Below, one piece after another: positions 1 through 16,841 of a DNA stretch of 32,000 bases (the stretch's first letter is position 1; each line of letters opens with the position of its first letter). The DNA is from Limnospira fusiformis SAG 85.79 (GTDB lineage Bacteria; Cyanobacteriota; Cyanobacteriia; Cyanobacteriales; Microcoleaceae). The notes beneath the pieces were generated by a model that saw only the letters and a list, made by a program, of their open reading frames with translations, did no database searches and had not been told where the DNA came from. The DNA lies in the NCBI RefSeq assembly GCF_012516315.1, contig NZ_CP051185.1, positions 299,459-331,458 on the forward strand. Direction: 5' to 3'. Made by a program: the position numbers and the translations under genes.

Positions 1-269
1 GGAGTGAGCGGCTATTGAACTATCCGGGTGCGACCAATGCTATCGAAGTTTGACAGTAGATAATGTGATGGCAACTGATCACATTGATGGTAATTGAGCC
101 AATAACACACTGTCGAACTGAGAAGGATAATATACGGACACTGCCATGATATCACAGACGCTAGAGGTATCTATTGATGACTGAGTAACTGAGGAGCCGT
201 GTGAAGGGAAACTTTCACGCACGGTTCTGGAGCAGAGGTAGGAAAGGTGACTTTCTTATCGACTGTAAT
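1..269 (+). mobile_element. Group II intron, 3' terminal segment (domains V and VI; the 5' part lies off-window)
   Basis: A canonical 34-nt domain V lies at 194-227: GAGCCGUGUGAAGG-GAAA-CUUUCAC[GC]ACGGUUC, with AGC triad, GAAA tetraloop and 2-nt 3' bulge. A DVI-like hairpin follows at 237-260 (GGUAGGAAAG-GUGA-CUUUCUUAUC), and the intron ends ...GUAAU at 269. The last 33 nt align without gaps to the tail of the complete intron at 15586-16456(-). No ORF of 60 aa or more lies in this stretch. Confidence 0.8.
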
Positions 270-568
270 AGTCAGGAGCAGTAAAATGTCGATTACCGTT
301 AGCTGTTGATCGTCGTAGTCGCAATAGCGATAAACCAGACTGGTTTAATTTAGACATTTGGGATAAGACGGCTGAAGTTGCTGCCAACTATGTCCGTAAG
401 GGCAGTTTGATTGGAGTCAAGGGAAGATTAAGGATTGAGACATGGACTGACCGCAATACGGGTGTACCACGTTCGACTCCGGTGATTGTGGTTGATCAAC
501 TTGAACTACTAGGATCTCGTCAGGATAATCAGGCATCTGGTGTTCCTGAGAATTATGATGAGTTCTAG
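270..568 (+). CDS. ssb: Single-stranded DNA-binding protein, 3' exon only (N-terminal ~35 aa missing from the window)
   Basis: The frame-2 translation is (E)SGAVKCRLPLAVDRRSRNSDKPDWFNLDIWDKTAEVAANYVRKGSLIGVKGRLRIETWTDRNTGVPRSTPVIVVDQLELLGSRQDNQASGVPENYDEF*. This is the typical SSB OB-fold core plus an acidic C-terminal tip. The frame is closed by TAG at 269-271, exactly at the intron end. It was not in the ORF track because it has no start codon. Confidence 0.8.
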
Positions 569-665
569 GGGTATGCTCTGGTAGTCGGGTTGATAACATA
601 GTTAAAATCCGACTGCTAGGGGATACCACCCTTGATGTGTTGCACTATGAAAGTTCATTTTTGTT

Positions 666-1202
666 GTGAGTTCACCAGAATTAGATCAGATTTTGCATGA
701 GTACAGATCTGGACAAATAGCCTTTGAACAGGGTCGATACCGCCAATCGGTGGTACATTTGGAAACAGCCAGAGATGCAGTGGAGGCTAACTCTGGCTTG
801 GGTGGCGAGGTCCAGATTTGGCTGGTAACAGCCTATGAAGCCCTAGGGGAAAGACAAAAGGCGATCGCTCTTTGCAAAACCCTCAAATTTCATCCCAGCC
901 TACAAACCAGGAAACAGTCGCGCCGGTTGCTAGAAATTTTGGAAGCACCCAAACTCTATAAGGGTTCGGAAGGGTTAATCGAAATTCCCGATCTGAGTAA
1001 CTTAGGAGAAAACGCAGATAAATTTCCTGTAGCATCATCAAGCCGAGAAACTTCTGGGAAAGCAGCCCCAGTCAAATCTAAATCACCAGACCCAGAGGTT
1101 GATCTAACTCAGGTGAATACGAAGGATAATCAATTTTTGTGGGTGGCTCTGATTTTCCTGGGGTTGATAATGACTAGCTTACTCTTGCATAACATCGGGT
1201 AA
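666..1202 (+). CDS. Hypothetical protein, TPR-like N-terminus with one C-terminal transmembrane helix
   Basis: 178-aa ORF with a GTG start. The segment AFEQGRYRQSVVHLETA...AYEALGERQKAIALC resembles a TPR pair. The hydrophobic tail is FLWVALIFLGLIMTSLLL. Confidence 0.5.
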   Translation: MSSPELDQILHEYRSGQIAFEQGRYRQSVVHLETARDAVEANSGLGGEVQIWLVTAYEALGERQKAIALCKTLKFHPSLQTRKQSRRLLEILEAPKLYKGSEGLIEIPDLSNLGENADKFPVASSSRETSGKAAPVKSKSPDPEVDLTQVNTKDNQFLWVALIFLGLIMTSLLLHNIG

Positions 1203-1487
1203 TTTTCGGCAGGAGCCAGAAATTACTGATCATCAATGCAGGTAAAGGATTAGACCTAGGTTAAGGGGGTTATGACACCTAACAGGTGAACGCCAGCCGG
1301 TTGCTCTGTCGTCTATCTTTAAGGACATGACGGAGGCAAACATTACCCGATCTGGGAGATGGCTTAAATGCCAGATTACCAAAATTACGTTTTTGTGGTT
1401 GACACCAAGGGGCAACCGTTAAAGCAGCTAAAGCGATAATAGTCTAAATCCCCTAATGCACGGAATCACTCGTAGTGTAACAATAGT

Positions 1488-3260: not shown

Positions 3261-4493
3261 ATGGTCAATTTATCTCAAGTATCGATTTTTATCGTTCCCC
3301 CAATTTTGGGGGGAATTATCGGCTACTTTACCAACGACCTAGCCATCAAAATGCTATTCCGTCCCTATAAAGCCAAAAAGGTCGGAAAAATTCAACTTCC
3401 CTTTACTCCCGGTTTAATTCCCCGCAACCAAGAAAGGCTGGCGAAAAGGGTTTCTGATACTATTATGCAGTCCCTGCTGACACCAGAGGAACTCCAGAAA
3501 GTTGCGCGCCGCCTATTAAAAACCGAACGCATTGAAGCGACGATTTTATGGTTATTACAACTGGCGCTGGCTCAGGTAAAAGCTGATACAGAACAGAAAA
3601 CCGCAAAAATTTTGGCAGGTATTCTGAGGGACTTTTTGGGGGAATCTTTACCTAGGATATTGCGGGTTATGGCGCGGCGGGAAGATTTTTTAGAGCCGCA
3701 GCTAAATCAGATTTTTGATCAAGTGATGTTGGAGTTCCAACTAAGTGACCAACAGGCTCAAAAACTTTCGGAATGGCTATTAGACCGAGTAATTCCCCCA
3801 GAAATTATCCGACTGACTTTAATTGATTTTCTGACCGATCGCAATATTTCGATTATTGACGAAGGCTTCCGGGAACAAAGCACGGGAACCTATTGGGTAG
3901 TGGCTAATATTTTCGGTCTCCGCACGACTTTAACCCGGTTAAGAACTTTTTGTCTGGATGAAAAAGAAGAAACTAATCACCGACTGGAAAAACTGTTAAC
4001 TTCTCTGGGTGTTAGGGAGCGACTAAAGGAGTGGTTGCAGAATCTTTCGATGCAAAATTTGCCGCTGTCTACGGTGCGACAATTACGCAAAACTTTCCGG
4101 GATACTGTGCGAGAATATGTCCAAGAACAGGGTATAGATTTAATTCAGGAGTTGACTAAATCTATTGATTGGGAAAGGGTTTCCGCCTTAATTTTAAAGC
4201 GGCTGCAAACTTCCCCAGTGGTTAATAATTCCCTAGGATTAGTTAGTCAAGAGTTGGCGCTGGTTTTGGAACGCTACCTAGAAGAAGACTTAGAGAAATT
4301 GGTGGCTAAGGCGATTCCGATTTTGAATCTTGATGGAGTGATTATAGAACGGGTAATGGCTACTTCTCCACAACAGTTAGAAGTAGCAGTTAATGGAATT
4401 GTGAAAAGTGAATTACAAGGAATAGTTAATCTGGGGGGTATTTTGGGGGTAATAGTTGGCTCACTACAAACGGTGATTTTGCTATTGCGTTAA
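3261..4493 (+). CDS. DUF445 family membrane-associated protein
   Basis: The N-terminal motif [19 protein letters not shown] and a C-terminal TM helix fit DUF445. I prefer the ATG at 3261 over the TTG at 3240 given in the ORF track. Confidence 0.6.
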
Positions 4494-5722
4494 AGTAACA
4501 TACCCGCCACACAAGCGGTCATAAAACAAGCGAGAGAACCAGCAATCATGGCTCGGACTCCTAATTGGGCTAGGTCTGCTTGTCTTTCTGGTGCGATCGC
4601 GGAAATGCCACCGATTTGAATGGCGATCGAGCCAATATTAGCAAATCCACAAAGGGCGTATGTAGCAATTAAAATCCCCCGGGGAGTAATGGTGGGTTCA
4701 GTAGTACCTACAACATTGGCATTTTCCATGAGTTGTTTCAGGTCTAAATAAGCGATAAATTCATTAAGAATAATCTTCTTACCCAGTAACACGCCGACGG
4801 TGGCGCAGTCTGACCAAGGTACACCCATTAACCAAGCGACGGGAGCAAAGATAAAAGAAAATAGCCATTCCAAGGAAAGTTGAGGTAATCCTATCCCGGC
4901 TCCTAACCATCCTAACACGCCGTTAACTAGGGCTAATAATCCTAAAAAAGCAATCAGCATGGCGGCGACATTTAGGGCTAATTTCATGCCTTCAGTGGCT
5001 CCGGTGGCGGCGGCATCAATGGCATTAGCAGAAGTGGGTTTTACTTCGATTTTTACCTTTCCGGCGGTGGGGGAAGGCTCGGTTTCAGGATAGAATATTT
5101 TAGAAATAGCTAAACTAGCAGGGGCGGACATTACGGAAGCGGCAATTAAATGTTCTGCGGGAACACCAAAGGAAATATAAGCGGCTAACACTCCCCCGGC
5201 GACGGTGGCAAATCCCCCGGTCATCATGGCATGGATTTCCGATCGCGTCATGGTGGCAATATAGGGTTTAACTAATAAGGGAGCCTCGGTTTGTCCGACG
5301 AAAATATTGGCGGAACAGGAGAGGGTTTCTGAACCGGAAGTCTTGAGGGTTTTCATCATTAACCATGCTACCCATTCGACTACTTTCTGTAAGATGCCAT
5401 AGTGATATAAGATGGTGATGAATGAGGAAAAAAAGACAATGGTCGGCAAGACCTTAAAGGCGATGAAATGCTGCTCAAAATCGTCTCCAAATACAAATTG
5501 GGCTCCCGCATCGGAAAAGTTGAGAAACTGGGTGACAGCAGCGCCTAGGGCTTGGAAAATGGCGAATCCTATGGCGGTTTTCAGAATCACAATGGCAAAT
5601 AAAATTTGCAGGGCAATGCCCCAGAAAACGGTAGGCCAGCGAATCTGCTGACGATCGCCGGAAAATAAATAGGCGAGGACTACAAATACTACAAGTCCTA
5701 ATGCGGAAATTGCCCGTTCCAT
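4490..5722 (-). CDS. NupC/CNT-family concentrative nucleoside transporter
   Basis: 410-aa polytopic protein with the CNT signature [16 protein letters not shown]. It converges on and overlaps the DUF445 stop by 4 nt. Confidence 0.75.
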
Positions 5723-5858
5723 TTGCTGTTGTTAAGTTAGGGTGAGGTTGAGTTGAGCGATCGCTGGTCACAGGTCGCTGGTCACAGGTAGCGACGGTGA
5801 CGGAGTATGTAACAATAGAGGGTTAGCACTATCAACGCCTGGATAAGGCGAAAGTTCC

Positions 5859-7220
5859 ATGTCTCGACCCATAGTTGCCATTATCGGCCGCCCTAATGTC
5901 GGTAAGTCTACACTGGTAAACCGTCTTACACAAACCCAAGATGCGATCGTTCATGATCAACCGGGGATGACCCGCGATCGCACCTATCGTTCCGCCTATT
6001 GGCAGGATCGAGAGTTTACCGTAGTCGATACGGGAGGGTTAGTCTTTGATGATGATACCGAGTTTTTGCCACTAATTAGAGAACAGGCCTTGATGGCTTT
6101 GGCAGAAGCGACAGCGGCTATTTTGGTGGTGGATGGACAAACAGGACCGACGGGAGGGGATGAGGCGATCGCTAGTTGGCTACGACAACAAAAGGTTCCG
6201 ATCCTCTTAGCAGTTAATAAATGTGAATCTCCTACCCAGGGACTGACTCAGGCGGCGCAATTCTGGGAATTGGGTTTGGGAAACCCTTTTCCGATTTCTA
6301 GCATTCATGGTAGCGGTACGGGGGAACTGCTGGATGCTTTGATTGAAAATTTACCAGCTTCCACAGACAATGAGGACAGCGAAGAATTGCGAGTGGCAAT
6401 TGTGGGCCGTCCGAATGTGGGTAAGTCTAGCCTATTAAATACTTTTCTGGGTCAGGAAAGGGCGATCGTCAGTCCAATTTCCGGCACTACCCGTGATGCG
6501 ATCGATACCATCGTAGAACATAATGGCAATACCTATCGGCTAGTAGATACGGCGGGGATACGCCGGAAAAAGCACGTTGAGTATGGGGCGGAGTTTTTTG
6601 GGATTAACCGGGCTTTTAAGGCGATCCGACGGGCTGATGTGGTGTTGTTTGTCATTGATGCTGTGGAAGGAGTCACAGACCAAGATCAAAAATTGGCGGG
6701 TCGTATTTCTGATGACGGGCGCGCCTGTGTGATTGTGGTAAATAAATGGGATGCGGTGGAAAAGGATAGTTACACGATCCTAGAGTATGAAAAAGTAATG
6801 CGATCGCGATTGTATTTTCTCGATTGGGCAGATATGATTTTTGTCAGCGCTATGACCGGACAGCGGGTTGAGAAAATTTTTAAATTGGTGGACAAAGCCG
6901 CCGAAGAAAATCGCCGCCGAGTCTCTACATCGGTAATTAATGAAGTCATCGAAGAAGCAGTCCGTTGGCATTCTCCCCCCACCAGTCGCCAAGGACGACA
7001 GGGTAAAATCTACTATGGAACTCAAGTTACCTCCAGTCCGCCCACAATTGTCTTGTTTGTGAATGACCCAAAACGGTTTGGGGATAATTATCGGCGCTAC
7101 ATGGAAAGCCAGTTCCGTCAACAATTGGGATTTGCTGGGACTCCCATTAGACTATTATGGCGGGGTAAAGCTATGCGGGAAGTAGAGAGAAATTCCTCTA
7201 ACCGGGCGACTAAGGTTTGA
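5859..7220 (+). CDS. der: Ribosome-biogenesis GTPase Der (EngA)
   Basis: Two tandem GTPase domains, each with a GRPNVGKS P-loop, DTGG/DTAG and NKCE/NKWD motifs. A KH-like C-terminus follows. Confidence 0.95.
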
Positions 7221-7281
7221 TTACTGACCAGTTGCGCCCAGTTGGCATTGATCCCCCCAACTATAGTTAATTGTTGAGAAA

Positions 7282-8244
7282 ATGGACCTACTGCGATCGC
7301 TACCTATCGGTTTATACTTAGAACAACCGATTACTTGGCTTCATCGCCTTGATTCCCGGATTAAGCTAGTCTGGTTGATGAGCTTTCTCATTGCACCGAT
7401 CCTCTCTAATGCCCTTTGGCGGTTGGGGTTGGTGGTGCTATTGATGGTGATTACCCTAGTGGCAGCAATTCCGTTCCGGGTGTGGAAGCGACAAATGGGC
7501 TGGCTATTAACTTTCTGTAGCTTATTGTTGATAGTAAGTGCTATCCTACCTGATGGGTTGAGTGTTAGCCATCAACCTCGCCTCCCCAGAGATGAGATAG
7601 CCTTGGAAATGCAAAGTCTTGGGAGAGTGGGAGGACTGGGAGAAAATGCCACAACGGCCGCTGATTCGGTGACTGAGACTGAGGGTTTACCTCAACCAAC
7701 AGCCTATAGTTATATTCTGCTGGCAGCGGGTCCGTTAACTATTACCCGCTATTCCCTGGATCTGGGTGTTCGGATTAGTACCTTGCTGTTTACCCTGGTT
7801 TACAGCACTAATCTATATCTACTGACTACGGCTTCTGAGGAAATTGCTGTGGGGATCGAAAGCCTGATGAAACCATTGCGACGGCTGAAAATTCCGGTAA
7901 CAGAAATAGCCCTCACCCTCACTCTGTCCCTGCGTTTCTTTCCCCTGGTACTTGAGGAAATTCAGAACCTATATAGATCTGTGCGTACTAGGGCGATCGA
8001 CTGGAAAAAACTGGGCTGGCGAAGGGCGACTCAAATTTGGCTTTTGGTGGCAGAACGACTCCTAGAAAATTTATTATTGAGAGCAGAACAAATTGCTAAT
8101 GCCATGAAAGTCCGAGGCTTTACCAGTCCTAACCAACATCGAGTTGAGTGGCATCAACTTCAAATTAATTGGTGGGATTGGGTCGCCCTATTAGCCTTAA
8201 CTATATTTTGGGGTATGCGTTTGGTTTGGGGCTGGGAATCTTAA
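7282..8244 (+). CDS. ecfT: Energy-coupling factor transporter transmembrane subunit (EcfT/CbiQ family)
   Basis: Multi-TM protein with a coupling-helix Arg-Gly motif (ANAMKVRGF). A hydrophilic insert lies mid-protein. Confidence 0.65.
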   Translation: MDLLRSLPIGLYLEQPITWLHRLDSRIKLVWLMSFLIAPILSNALWRLGLVVLLMVITLVAAIPFRVWKRQMGWLLTFCSLLLIVSAILPDGLSVSHQPRLPRDEIALEMQSLGRVGGLGENATTAADSVTETEGLPQPTAYSYILLAAGPLTITRYSLDLGVRISTLLFTLVYSTNLYLLTTASEEIAVGIESLMKPLRRLKIPVTEIALTLTLSLRFFPLVLEEIQNLYRSVRTRAIDWKKLGWRRATQIWLLVAERLLENLLLRAEQIANAMKVRGFTSPNQHRVEWHQLQINWWDWVALLALTIFWGMRLVWGWES

Positions 8245-8727: not shown

Positions 8728-9399
8728 ATGACTGATTCGATCGCTGAAAGAATTGCCCAAATTCGGGCTGCTATTCCCCCAGAGGTGCGACTGGTCGCTG
8801 TGACCAAAACGGTTTCGGTGGAGGCTATACGCTTGGCTTATGAAGCCGGAGTGAGGGATTTTGGCGAAAATCGTGTTCAGGAAGCAGAGGCGAAACAACT
8901 TCAATTGCAAGATCTCAGGGATATTACTTGGCACTTGATTGGTCATCTACAAAGCAATAAGGCGGCGACGGCGATCGCTCATTTTGATTGGCTCCACTCG
9001 GTTGATAGTTGGAAATTAGCCCAAAGACTCGATCGCCTGGCTAGAGAACAGTCTCGCTGTCCCCGGATCTGCCTACAGGTGAAAATCCTCCCAGATCCTA
9101 ACAAATATGGTTGGACAGTCCCGGAGTTACTGGCTGATTTACCCCAGCTTAATGCCTGTGAGTCCCTAAATATTCAAGGTCTAATGACAATTCCCCCCCA
9201 AGGCTTGACCGAAACCCAAACGCGATCGGTTTTTGAAAAAACCCGTCAGTTAGCGGCTGAAATTGGGGCGCAAAACTGGTCTAATATCAAAATGGCAGAA
9301 TTATCTATGGGTATGTCAGGGGACTATTTACTAGCCGTAGAAGCAGGGGCTACTATGATTAGACCGGGACAAATTATATTCGGCCCAAGGAATATCTAA
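8728..9399 (+). CDS. pipY: YggS/COG0325 PLP-homeostasis protein (PipY)
   Basis: The PLP-lysine context is LVAVTKT. Other motifs are FGENRVQE, WHLIGHLQSNK and LSMGMSGDY. It lies immediately downstream of pipX, as in the known pipXY operon. Confidence 0.9.
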   Translation: MTDSIAERIAQIRAAIPPEVRLVAVTKTVSVEAIRLAYEAGVRDFGENRVQEAEAKQLQLQDLRDITWHLIGHLQSNKAATAIAHFDWLHSVDSWKLAQRLDRLAREQSRCPRICLQVKILPDPNKYGWTVPELLADLPQLNACESLNIQGLMTIPPQGLTETQTRSVFEKTRQLAAEIGAQNWSNIKMAELSMGMSGDYLLAVEAGATMIRPGQIIFGPRNI

Positions 9400-9412: not shown

Positions 9413-10751
9413 GAGCCAGAATTTAATCCAAGATTTGCTTTACATCTTAGGACAATAAGGTACAATACCCAAAAAGATTCGCAACTCAATAATGAATATA
9501 CGGTGAAACCCCAGACCATGCCAAATTTCCCTGACGACATACTCATCAAGTCGGATTCATGGTAAAATAAAATCATGGCTTACAAAGCTTTCCGAACCAA
9601 ACTAAAACTCAATGACCGTCATCGCACCTTGATGGCCAAACACGCGGGTTATGCTCGGTTCGTGTTTAATTGGGGATTACACTTATGGAGGTCAGCTTAT
9701 GAAGAGGGACTCAAGCCTAATATCAACTCCATTAAAAAGGTTTTTACTCATTATGTGAAACCTCAATATCCTTGGATATCTGAATTGTCTTCTAAAGTTG
9801 ATCAATATGCCTTCATTAATCTAGGGGATGCCTTTAAGCGCTTCTTCAAGGGAATAAGCAGTTATCCTAAATTTAAGAAGAAAGGCTACCATGATAGCTT
9901 TACCCTTGACAATTCGGGAAAGCCATTCAAGTTGTCAGGAACTCGCCATAAGCTGCCTTTTGTGGGCTGGGTTTCTACGTTTGAGGCTCTACCCGAAAGT
10001 GGGGTTAAGAAAGTCACTATAACGCGCCAAGCAGGTGACTGGTATATTAGCTTTTTCGTAGAAATCACGCCAGAAATTACACCGAAATATCGAGAGAGAA
10101 TCGGGGTAGACCTAGGAATTAACAATTGGGCGACTTGCTCCGATGGGACCCAATTCTCTAATCCCAAGGCTTATAAAGCAGCCACCCAAAAACTAGCTCG
10201 ATTACAACGTCATTTAAGTCGCAAAGTCAAAGGCTCAAAAAATCGGGCCAAATGTCTCTTAAAAGTTCAAAAGCTACATCAAAGAGTAGCTAATATTCGC
10301 CGTGACACGATTCATAAAATAACTACTTTTTTGGCTAAAAACCACAGCCAAGTAGTCATTGAAGATTTGAATGTGTCTGGAATGCTGAAAAATCATGGTT
10401 GGGCGGGTTCTATCGCTGATGCTTCATTTTATGAGTTCCGTCGGCAACTAGGTGACAAGGCAGAACGTTATGGTTCAAAGTTGATTATTGCCGATAGATT
10501 TTATCCATCCAGTCAACTGTGTTCTAATTGCGGTTATCGTCAAAAAATGCCCCTAGTCCGTCGGACTTTTGAATGTCCAAACTGTGGCCTGAAGATTGAT
10601 AGAGATTTGAACGCCAGTATAAATTTAGAAAAATCGCCTGGTTCAGACGATTACACTTGTGGACGGGGTGCTGCCGACAGTCCCGGACGAAGCCAGAAAT
10701 AAACGTCAATATCCGGCTATGTCCGGTTTTGTTTAAGTTTTATAGAGCAGT
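9413..10751 (+). mobile_element. IS200/IS605-family element, tnpB-only (no tnpA), copy 1
   Basis: Boundaries are set by where identity with the inverted copy 2 (14413-16624) begins and ends. The left end starts at GAGCCAGAATTT and the right end stops at ...TATAGAGCAGT. Boundaries are good to about 3 nt. Confidence 0.85.
9575..10702 (+). CDS. tnpB: RNA-guided endonuclease TnpB (IS1341/OrfB type)
   Basis: 375 aa. The RuvC-like triad contexts are intact: GVDLGINN, VVIEDLNV and IDRDLNASINL. A CxxC...CxxC zinc finger is present (CSNCG...CPNCG). Confidence 0.9.
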   Translation: MAYKAFRTKLKLNDRHRTLMAKHAGYARFVFNWGLHLWRSAYEEGLKPNINSIKKVFTHYVKPQYPWISELSSKVDQYAFINLGDAFKRFFKGISSYPKFKKKGYHDSFTLDNSGKPFKLSGTRHKLPFVGWVSTFEALPESGVKKVTITRQAGDWYISFFVEITPEITPKYRERIGVDLGINNWATCSDGTQFSNPKAYKAATQKLARLQRHLSRKVKGSKNRAKCLLKVQKLHQRVANIRRDTIHKITTFLAKNHSQVVIEDLNVSGMLKNHGWAGSIADASFYEFRRQLGDKAERYGSKLIIADRFYPSSQLCSNCGYRQKMPLVRRTFECPNCGLKIDRDLNASINLEKSPGSDDYTCGRGAADSPGRSQK

Positions 10752-15585: not shown

Positions 15586-16456
15586 GTTATGGTCGAAAGG
15601 GAAGTCACCTTCCCCAACTCCACTTCCAAACCGTACTTGAGACTTTCACCTCATACGGCTCCTAATGTAGATACCCTTTTTGTCACTAGGAACAGGGTTA
15701 CGAACCCCCGCTTTATGATTCCAACTTTGGGAGCTTGGCATACAACTCGTAGTCTTTAAACTCGCTCTCGTCATATTACTCCTACTTGTCGCAGTCTCCA
15801 TATCTACACCGTGACTAGTGGGCATATCCTAATCATTACAATTAGGCATTGGCTTTCAGTCACATCCTTTCCCCTCAATGGTATACGCTTACACTTTTCG
15901 CTACTCCTTGTGAGTAATATTGCTCACTTTTTTGATAAGGAGAACCAATGAGGAGTTTAAACGTTCCGTTTATATGGGCATTCCATCTTTAGACTTGTCC
16001 TCTCCACCGGGGTACTTAAAAAGGTCTGTGTAGGTGTTTTATGCAAAACCCTACTTTTCCCCTTGCTCTTTTGAGCGCAGCGTGGCAACCTATTACGCTG
16101 CTAAATCATTACGATGGTTCAAGCCAGACATTCGGTTTCCCTAGTCATGGATGGTTGGCAGTGGTCGCATTTGGTAGTAGGTTCTACCTCACGCCTTCCG
16201 TTCCCCGCTTCAATCCCAGAATCGTGTATCCTGAAATTGGGGGTGGCTATCGCCTTTACTCTCTACTCCCTGATTTCTCAGTTTGTTTATGACCTTGAGT
16301 CCCCTGCCTTGCTCAGATTTCTCCAAGCGTCGGGACATATAAACAGTTATGGGATGGTCAGGATACGAGTCCCTTATATTCCACCAAGGGGTGGAAGTCC
16401 CACTAGGAGGCTATTTCGGGCATTGCAGCCTTATTTGACTCCTAAACGTCTCGCAC
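15586..16456 (-). mobile_element. Complete ORF-less group II intron (871 nt)
   Basis: On the minus strand it starts GUGCGAGACG (16456 downward). Domain V lies at 15628-15661: GAGCCGUAUGAGGU-GAAA-GUCUCA[AG]UACGGUUU. A DVI-like hairpin follows and the intron ends ...CGACCAUAAC at 15586. The block is absent from the otherwise collinear copy 1. It is too short to hold a reverse-transcriptase ORF. Confidence 0.85.
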
Positions 16457-16841
16457 CATGGTTTGATTTTACCATGAAGAATCCGACTTGATGAGTATGT
16501 CGTCAAGGAAATTTGGCATGGTCTGGGGTTTGACCGTATACTCATTATTGAGTTGCGAATCTTTGGGGTTATTGTACCTTATTGTCCTAAGATGTAAAGC
16601 AAATCTTGGATTAAATTCTGGCTCTGGGTTCAAACTAGGGTAAGGTAGGGTGCGTCAAACCTACTCAATATCGATCATAATTATGCGATCGCACCATACC
16701 CCTGCTATTTCAATCCCAATCGAATAATTTTCGCCAAAGAGTGCGATCGCCTCCCGTAGCCTCCGGTCGGGTGCGTCATAACCCGGCTATATAAATGCCT
16801 GGGGATAATTCCCTGCTGACGCACCATAGAGACTATATTTG

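Follow-up and report, generated by a model that had tools for sequence, protein, structure and literature searches.

The stretch of DNA analysed here (the window, 32,000 nt of the chromosome of Limnospira fusiformis SAG 85.79) starts inside an intron of ssb, a gene encoding a single-stranded DNA-binding protein (SSB). Very probably, positions 1-269 correspond to the 3'-terminal part of a group II intron of the chloroplast-like (IIB) type and positions 270-568 are exon 2 of the gene that it splits, the short, 120-aa Alr0088-type ssb of the Arthrospira/Limnospira chromosome. Indeed, the Rfam model RF00029 (Intron_gpII, domains V and VI) covers window 192-269 (+) over its full length, with 65.4 bits (gathering score, 40; E 6.5e-11), and the plastid-type domain V model RF04357 matches 191-231. 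The initial annotation, made from the sequence of the window alone, had recognised the domain V and a domain VI-like hairpin and had named a search with the Rfam group II models as a check; both hairpins are recovered by these matches. The intron terminates in ...AAU at 269, and the motif CGACU(G/C)UAA(U/C) is kept at the 3' end of all 11 introns found at this ssb site (site A). Branching would putatively take place at A262 of domain VI.

Read from position 269, the frame gives TAG, then SGAVKCRLPLAVDRRSRNSDKPDWF...ENYDEF* (SGAVKCRL...ENYDEF*). As initially noted, it is closed by this TAG, which spans the junction between intron and exon 2 (269-271), and has no start codon: neither ATG nor GTG opens it, and the sole listed start of an open reading frame (ORF) is an internal TTG at 407. 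The Pfam SSB family (PF00436) matches the exon-2 translation from profile position 22 (E 5e-18). Scans of window 1-1300 for promoter and terminator consensus sequences gave nothing informative.

Exon 1 was read from six Limnospira loci (L001-L006), retrieved by a residue-for-residue match of the 178-aa ORF located at window 666-1202 (window position 1 being locus position 9336), and from Arthrospira platensis PCC 7345 (L010). In six of the six Limnospira loci, its ATG lies 2.39 kb 5' of the 3' splice site. Exon 1 (ATG AGT CTA AAT GTT GTT ACC ... GAT GTC AAA TAT TTT G), whose sequence includes ATGAGTCTAAATGTTGTTACC..., is directly followed by GTGCGA in these loci. The ending TAT TTT G and the adjoining GTGCGA are common to seven Arthrospira/Limnospira assemblies (the six Limnospira and PCC 7345), and GTGCGA, an intron boundary of the GUGYG type, is also found at the other ssb loci. 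An exon 1 with this ending followed by GUGYG was precisely what the initial annotation proposed to look for; in these assemblies it is found 2.3 kb upstream, with GTGCG. The gene consists of a 64-nt exon 1, a 2325-nt intron (from 5' GTGCGA to AAU 3') holding a 502-aa ORF, and a 299-nt exon 2.

Joining exon 1 (...TTTG) to position 270 (AG TCA GGA...) gives an in-frame GAG codon, E22, at the predicted spliced junction ...GTCAAATATTTTG/AGTCAGGAGCAGT..., also written ...AAATATTTTG/AGTCAGG... (the slash marks the splice site). As the RF00029 match also ends at 269, the 3' splice site 269/270 with a split GAG codon (...YFE/SG...) stands as first proposed. In contrast, exon 2 does not start at about residue 35, as first thought, but at residue 22/23 of the 120-aa protein (E22 read as G/AG, then S23). 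The spliced ORF encodes an intact 120-aa SSB in every Arthrospira/Limnospira assembly examined (n=7). Its product matches positions 1-104 of PF00436 (E 6.5e-26) and aligns over 100% of its length with uninterrupted cyanobacterial SSBs of 119-122 aa, with 68-78% identity; Y20, F21, E22, S23 and G24 are invariant across the junction in this alignment.

The best full-length homologue is the SSB of Lyngbya sp. CCY1209 (L021), whose uninterrupted gene is colinear with the spliced Limnospira exons (363 versus 363 nt, no indel) and reads ...AAATATTTTG/AGTCGGG at the intron site, the same junction being given as ...GACGTGAAATATTTTG/AGTCGGG... It is followed by the same neighbours as in the window, i.e. 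the 178-aa ORF and the genes of a response regulator (RR), a UbiE methyltransferase and a DUF445 protein. The Lyngbya gene is a classical empty site. Around this otherwise syntenic ssb-178aa-RR-UbiE-DUF445 block, the window and Lyngbya differ by a local rearrangement: genes for a nucleoside transporter, the Der/EngA GTPase and CbiQ are downstream of ssb in the window (4490-8244) and are upstream of ssb and inverted in Lyngbya (L021 1-2863).

The recognition of exon 1 was examined in an alignment (A4) of 11 ssb introns that comprised the end of exon 1 and the first 450 bases of the intron; partners slid by 1-3 columns and 500 shuffles served as controls. The first 600 nt of the intron are strongly conserved across the 11 lineages. 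A candidate exon-binding site 2 (EBS2, UUGAUG, intron 285-290 in Limnospira) pairs with the corresponding intron-binding site (IBS2, UGUCAA, exon -14 to -9), with compensatory changes at four of the six pairs, and a candidate EBS1 (CGAAAU, intron 347-352) pairs with IBS1 (AUUUUG, exon -6 to -1) in every cell (100%). For both contacts together, pairing reaches 93.9% of cells versus 32-49% for the slid partners, and the observed covariation score was reached by none of the 500 shuffles; all the compensatory changes belong to EBS2/IBS2 (four pairs). The two pairings are taken to be the contacts EBS2/IBS2 and EBS1/IBS1 that a IIB-type intron makes. Two other candidates were rejected. CAAAA (intron 318-322), considered as EBS1, does not vary across the lineage or in a divergent intron and is therefore structural. 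The AUUUGAC/GUCAAAU pairing has 91% of paired cells but no compensatory change at all, and overlaps EBS1.

Expression of this ssb would then involve four steps. The gene would be transcribed as exon 1, intron and exon 2; the intron would fold and recognise exon 1 by the EBS1-IBS1 and EBS2-IBS2 pairings; it would be excised by branching at the bulged adenosine of domain VI, with the help of its own maturase; and ligation of the exons inside codon Glu22 (G/AG) would restore an OB-fold SSB.

Table 1. Positions of the features in the window and at the compared loci
Feature	Sequence	Position	Strand	Basis or remark
Predicted 3' end (last 269 nt) of the 2325-nt ORF-containing group II intron	Window	1..269	+	End of domain IV, domains V and VI; alignment with L001-L006 and RF00029
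Last 17 codons and TGA stop of the IEP (intron-encoded protein) ORF	Window	1..53	+	Gene called at 7880-9388 in L001-L006
Domain V, 34-nt catalytic hairpin (GAGCCGUGUGAAGGGAAACUUUCACGCACGGUUC)	Window	194..227	+	RF00029, 65.4 bits; RF04357, 56.6 bits
Domain VI hairpin	Window	about 232..266	+	RF00029 alignment; A262, putative bulged branch-point adenosine, 8 nt 5' of the 3' splice site
3' splice site, with the final base of the intron (U) at 269 and the first of exon 2 (A) at 270	Window	268..271	+	End of RF00029 match and in-frame exon join
ssb exon 2: 2 nt of split codon E22, codons 23-120, TAG stop at 566-568	Window	270..568	+	Translation and Pfam SSB
Exon-2 stretch hypervariable and mosaic between Limnospira strains	Window	277..477	+	Strain comparison, 9612-9812 in L001-L006
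ssb exons	L001-L006	7216-7279 and 9605-9903		
ssb intron	L001-L006	7280-9604		5' GTGCGA to AAU 3'
Second ssb intron (Coleofasciculus)	L008	4875-7232		
Second ssb intron	L015	5386-7743		
Second ssb intron	L016	5365-6832		
Second ssb intron	L019	4676-7281		
Second group II intron of the window, in tnpB	Window	15586-16456	-	871 nt, no ORF; RF00029, 60.6 bits
Exons of the interrupted tnpB	Window	about 16475-16457 and 15585-14462	-	
Uninterrupted tnpB copy	Window	9575-10702	+	IS605 family, 375 aa
125-aa ORF	Window	16114-16491	+	Antisense, wholly inside the tnpB intron

ssb introns in other cyanobacteria

A scan of genome contigs with the IEP returned two loci only, one in PCC 7345 and the other in an unrelated Firmicute. 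The lineage was mapped by exact-protein look-ups of IEP relatives showing 55-87% identity (n=11 tested, with a range given as 55-99% for the whole set), and all 11 occupy the identical ssb codon. The carriers are Arthrospira platensis PCC 7345, Coleofasciculus sp., Laspinema olomoucense, Tolypothrix sp., Xenococcus sp., an Aerosakkonema-type contig and several metagenomic contigs. Exon 1 has exactly 64 nt at the 11 loci with the whole of it on the contig, L009 beginning inside exon 1. At every locus, exon 1 ends with ...(K/R)YF+G, GTGCGA follows and exon 2 starts with A(G/A/T)TC...SG; an RF00029 match is found in every ssb-site intron, including those of 11 other loci. The spliced products are all uninterrupted: nine are complete, with 118-125 aa, and two (L012 and L019) run off the contig end.

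Four of these ssb genes harbour a second group II intron, located inside E57 (Coleofasciculus, L015) or E50 (Laspinema, Xenococcus). These extra sites bring a gene of 360 nt to two introns, and each of the three intron positions splits a Glu codon in phase 1. The second intron of Laspinema has only 1468 nt, with a fragment of a reverse transcriptase (RT) gene. In the spliced SSB of Coleofasciculus (L008), residues about 78-90 read KIDPLTTRDGHNYHKPVIRV where its relatives read KIDTWSDRNTGxxRSxPVIRV, so that the otherwise invariant W80 and R89-S90 are absent; this two-intron copy may be degenerating.

At least ten cyanobacterial lineages, belonging to several orders, thus carry members of an ssb-specific intron lineage at one shared codon. 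Two features favour horizontal homing over purely vertical descent. First, the pairwise identities of IEPs and SSBs are uncorrelated (Spearman -0.16), as illustrated by L015/L016 (88% for the IEP versus 65% for the SSB) and L014/L019 (85% versus 61%). Second, most members of the lineage keep an HNH endonuclease domain. The lineage thus probably spreads by horizontal homing into an invariant ssb site. A single ancient insertion followed by vertical inheritance and many losses would also give one shared position, and we regard it as possible although rather unlikely. The identical site with its 64-nt exon 1 at 11 loci, the location of ssb between mreBCD and a SIMPL-domain gene in several carriers and the clear co-divergence of intron and flanks within Arthrospira/Limnospira would all fit it; the uncorrelated identities and the retained endonuclease do not, nor does the fact that most cyanobacterial ssb genes are uninterrupted.

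Fate of the Limnospira intron and of the ssb exons

The IEP of Limnospira has 502 aa, with RVT_N, RVT_1 and GIIM (maturase) domains (Pfam, E 1e-20 to 1e-25), and its ORF is intact at all six Limnospira loci. No HNH endonuclease domain was found in it by Pfam. Relatives of 563-583 aa bear a C-terminal HNH module (C..C...HH.D.NR.NN...H.HCHD..H), whereas the proteins of Limnospira (502 aa) and PCC 7345 (498 aa) end before its position (alignment A3). The catalytic triad of reverse transcriptases consists of the motif A Asp and of the two Asp residues of YADD. Motif A, which is YVLDADIEKCFDRINH in the relatives, is YVLDAHIEKCCEGIYH in Limnospira and PCC 7345; it reads LDAHI..CCE (LDAHIEKCCE) in Limnospira versus LDADI..CFD in TeI4h and VDMDL..FFD in GsI-IIC. 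The catalytic Asp is replaced by His and FD by CE, which leaves the triad incomplete, while YADD is kept and the maturase domain is intact. The best match among solved structures is the Thermosynechococcus TeI4h maturase/RT (PDB 6ME0, E 9e-70). The RT activity of the Limnospira protein has probably been lost.

In the protein database, this type of IEP forms a single Limnospira cluster; it lies at the ssb locus in the six Limnospira assemblies examined, and its next relative, 87% identical, is that of PCC 7345, also in ssb. Between L004 and PCC 7345, identity is 93-94% in the flanks, 93-94% in the exons, 91.8% in the IEP ORF and 97.2% in the intron 5' RNA, i.e. the intron has diverged along with its flanks and its ribozyme 5' RNA has changed less than the DNA around it. 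This co-divergence argues for vertical inheritance within Arthrospira/Limnospira. Together with the lack of an endonuclease domain and the His in motif A, it makes it most likely that the intron of Limnospira/Arthrospira is immobilised and vertically inherited, its protein surviving as a splicing factor.

That this intron is still mobile, its presence in every strain reflecting ongoing retrohoming rather than a fixed copy, appears improbable. Endonuclease-minus group II introns can still be mobile and can retrohome using replication-fork primers, TeI4h is the nearest solved relative, the protein still has YADD, and the strains differ in their exons but hardly in the intron. The two changes in motif A, the restriction of the protein type to ssb and the joint divergence of intron and flanks from PCC 7345 nevertheless point away from ongoing mobility, and protein database searches found no intron-less Limnospira ssb allele.

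The exons of Limnospira are hypervariable, by comparison with the intron and with the flanking DNA, both of which scarcely vary. Among 67 variable sites in 2.9 kb, 49 fall in the 363 exon nt and 14 in the 2325-nt intron; exon 2 holds 45 of the 67, nearly all within the stretch given in Table 1. L002 and L004 show 43 exon differences, with a synonymous divergence (dS) of 0.35 and a ratio of nonsynonymous to synonymous divergence (dN/dS) of 0.21, and only seven intron differences; their exon dS even exceeds that between L004 and PCC 7345 (0.16). The differences form mosaic blocks, the ORF always remains intact, and the strain pairs that diverge more have a dN/dS of 0.2-0.4. This mosaicism looks like short-tract recombination with diverged ssb donors. 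Neither a close intron-less ssb paralogue nor a donor of the variable patches was found, no full-length protein being more than 82% identical to any Limnospira allele. A cause of the type of diversity-generating retroelements was rejected by inspection, as the substitutions hit all four bases and occur in mosaic blocks. One possibility is that the intron itself shapes ssb recombination, foreign intron-less alleles converting each exon separately and stopping at the intron; this would explain mosaic hypervariable exons beside a nearly invariant intron.

The estimated dN/dS between L004 and PCC 7345 is 0.42 for the IEP and 0.28 for the SSB, values below 1 that fit purifying selection on both. 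Together with ribozyme conservation and the co-divergence of intron and flanks, they argue against a dead locus, in which the insertion would have inactivated an ssb copy, leaving exon 2 as a truncated pseudogene and SSB supplied by another gene such as one of the All4779 type. This explanation is very unlikely. It would account for the gene calls, pipelines reporting only a 53-aa or 91-aa exon-2 ORF (including entry P0243) or nothing, it would be in line with the signs of degeneration in the IEP, and a second, typical SSB is reported in all cyanobacterial genomes (PMC3976300). However, up to 43 exon substitutions have left the spliced frame intact in seven assemblies, with a dN/dS of 0.2-0.4 in the strain pairs that diverge more, and the frame is uninterrupted in ten other intron-bearing lineages, two-intron genes included (eight complete, two running off the contig end). 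Moreover, the 5' RNA is better conserved than the flanks, the EBS-IBS pairs covary and the IEP ORF is open in all six Limnospira loci.

The translation of exon 2 alone from an internal TTG, giving an N-terminally truncated SSB-like protein of 53-91 aa as GenBank annotates in some strains, is scarcely credible: 91-aa 'single-stranded DNA-binding protein' entries exist for Arthrospira (P0241-P0243) and genes of 91 and 53 aa are called in L001, L002 and L005, but the window has TTA instead of TTG at the 91-aa start codon, so that this start is not conserved, the product would lack residues 1-29, including the invariant N4, V6, L8-R11, G13, D15, P16 and Y20-G24, and exon 1 is kept at exactly 64 nt in all lineages.

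The SSB concerned and its possible dependence on splicing

The split gene is the short Alr0088-type ssb and not the All4779-type gene. The spliced product is about 70% identical to the 119-120 aa SSBs of Nostocales. The alr0088 gene of Anabaena sp. PCC 7120 is uninterrupted. In several carriers, ssb lies next to mreBCD, as does alr0088 in Anabaena (all0087-all0085), and its location between mreBCD and a SIMPL-domain gene matches the alr0088 neighbourhood. The Limnospira SSB ends with ...NYDEF, an acidic and aromatic tip, while Alr0088 stops right after the OB fold, with no P/G spacer or acidic tail region (PMC3976300). In Anabaena, the major typical SSB is reported to be not Alr0088 but the 182-aa All4779, with a P/G linker and an acidic tail, and all cyanobacterial genomes are reported to have homologues of both types (PMC3976300). 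The initial annotation stated that cell viability would depend on splicing; as the split gene is of the Alr0088 type and All4779 is reported as the main SSB in Anabaena, this claim is not supported as worded, and the dependence of Limnospira viability on ssb splicing is unproven.

Taken together, these data suggest a scenario that we put forward tentatively, with somewhat less than even confidence. The ssb gene would be the dedicated target of a horizontally moving intron lineage of filamentous and pleurocapsalean cyanobacteria, always inserted inside the ...YF-E/SG codon; the Arthrospira/Limnospira copy would have been domesticated and fixed, and production of this SSB would depend on, and might be regulated by, maturase-assisted splicing.

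Several points weigh against these interpretations. Splicing in vivo, the use of the branch point, branching itself and the dependence on the maturase are inferred from sequence. The window itself does not include exon 1, the 5' splice site or the EBS sites, which were read from near-identical assemblies; the closest of these (L004) differs from the window at 8 of 11,202 bases. The search of the whole intron locus with the Rfam D1-D4 group II models (E <= 1) gave no match, only the domain V/VI and plastid domain V models matching; no curated class is therefore assigned, and the assignment proposed relies on the type of domain V and on the solved IEP that is nearest. The argument for horizontal spread uses a noisy host protein of 120 aa and only ten lineages. 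Finally, the presumed inactivity of the RT is deduced from one motif substitution and a missing endonuclease domain in a protein that retains YADD.

Related systems and the second intron of the window

In bacteria, conserved genes are mostly free of group II introns. A few exceptions, such as those in dnaN and nrdJ of Trichodesmium, recA of Geobacillus and groEL of Azotobacter, are used to ask how introns become tolerated, fixed and regulatory. The ssb lineage can be compared at one codon across about ten cyanobacterial lineages, some copies looking mobile and at least one immobilised, and would provide naturally graded cases of the passage from a retroelement to an intron dependent on its host, a step that is invoked for organellar and spliceosomal introns. 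It also matters in practice: Limnospira ("spirulina") is grown industrially, and in GenBank the exon-2 ORF from one Arthrospira strain is named as an SSB of 91 aa, so that current annotation does not recognise the split gene, which is reported as a 91-aa or 53-aa fragment or missed. The strain-to-strain mosaicism of the exons is of interest for population genomics.

The closest parallels are of four kinds. The group IIB intron TeI4h of Thermosynechococcus elongatus is likewise cyanobacterial, and its protein has RT and maturase (X) domains and no endonuclease. TeI4h belongs to a mobile, proliferating intron family; unlike it, the ssb intron encodes a protein with His at the motif A Asp, and in the Limnospira assemblies examined this type of protein occurred at no locus other than ssb. 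Organellar introns with degenerate maturases (plastid trnK/MatK) are also fixed in position, with an encoded protein that has lost mobility functions and apparently has only a splicing role, and the match of domain V to the plastid-type model recalls them. The ssb intron differs from them in being bacterial and chromosomal, in the recognisable RT motifs of its protein, including YADD, and in its endonuclease-bearing close relatives in other cyanobacteria. Avi.groEL-type introns are another monophyletic bacterial lineage specialised for conserved positions in housekeeping genes; however, they are located at codons for initiation or termination and have a large 5' insertion within domain I, whereas the ssb intron lies inside the ORF, at codon 22, and no such insertion was seen in it.

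The introns of Trichodesmium erythraeum in dnaN, nrdJ and thyX likewise occupy conserved DNA-metabolism genes of a cyanobacterium (PMC4143802, PMC4649490, PMC12584367). Both systems include multi-intron genes, splicing restores the ORF (as predicted for ssb) and some Trichodesmium introns need a maturase. The ssb gene is absent from the ten Trichodesmium host genes of Table 2 in PMC4143802. Furthermore, the Trichodesmium twintron is reported to be confined to its genus (PMC4649490), while the ssb intron is found at the same codon in several orders; this shared position is therefore the less ordinary part of the finding. More generally, introns in conserved bacterial genes are uncommon but documented, by RNA-seq for Trichodesmium dnaN, nrdJ, thyX and others (PMC4143802), and also for Geobacillus recA and the Avi.groEL lineage (PMC12584367). 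With 101-150 group II introns, the most reported for any prokaryote (PMC2853384, PMC8919778), Arthrospira platensis is so rich in these elements that an intron at this locus is unsurprising in itself. Full-text literature searches found neither a report of an ssb intron in cyanobacteria nor a list of Arthrospira host genes naming ssb. The element itself is of an ordinary kind; its host gene is unusual and, as far as found, unreported.

The window contains a second group II intron, which starts with GTGCGAG and is a divergent homologue of the ssb intron. It lies within a tnpB gene (IS605 OrfB/Cas12f-like), at the 5' end of this gene, whose predicted splicing would yield an intact ORF from an upstream ATG (MVKSNH/AYKAF...). 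Relative to the uninterrupted copy, the junction lacks one G, and EBS1 complementarity looks weak, which suggests that this intron may be an ectopic insertion. The uninterrupted tnpB has 96% nucleotide identity with the intron-bearing one; gene calls break it into two to four ORFs in L001, L003 and L005, and it seems to be decaying in some strains. The 125-aa ORF antisense to tnpB has no Pfam match and is most likely spurious.

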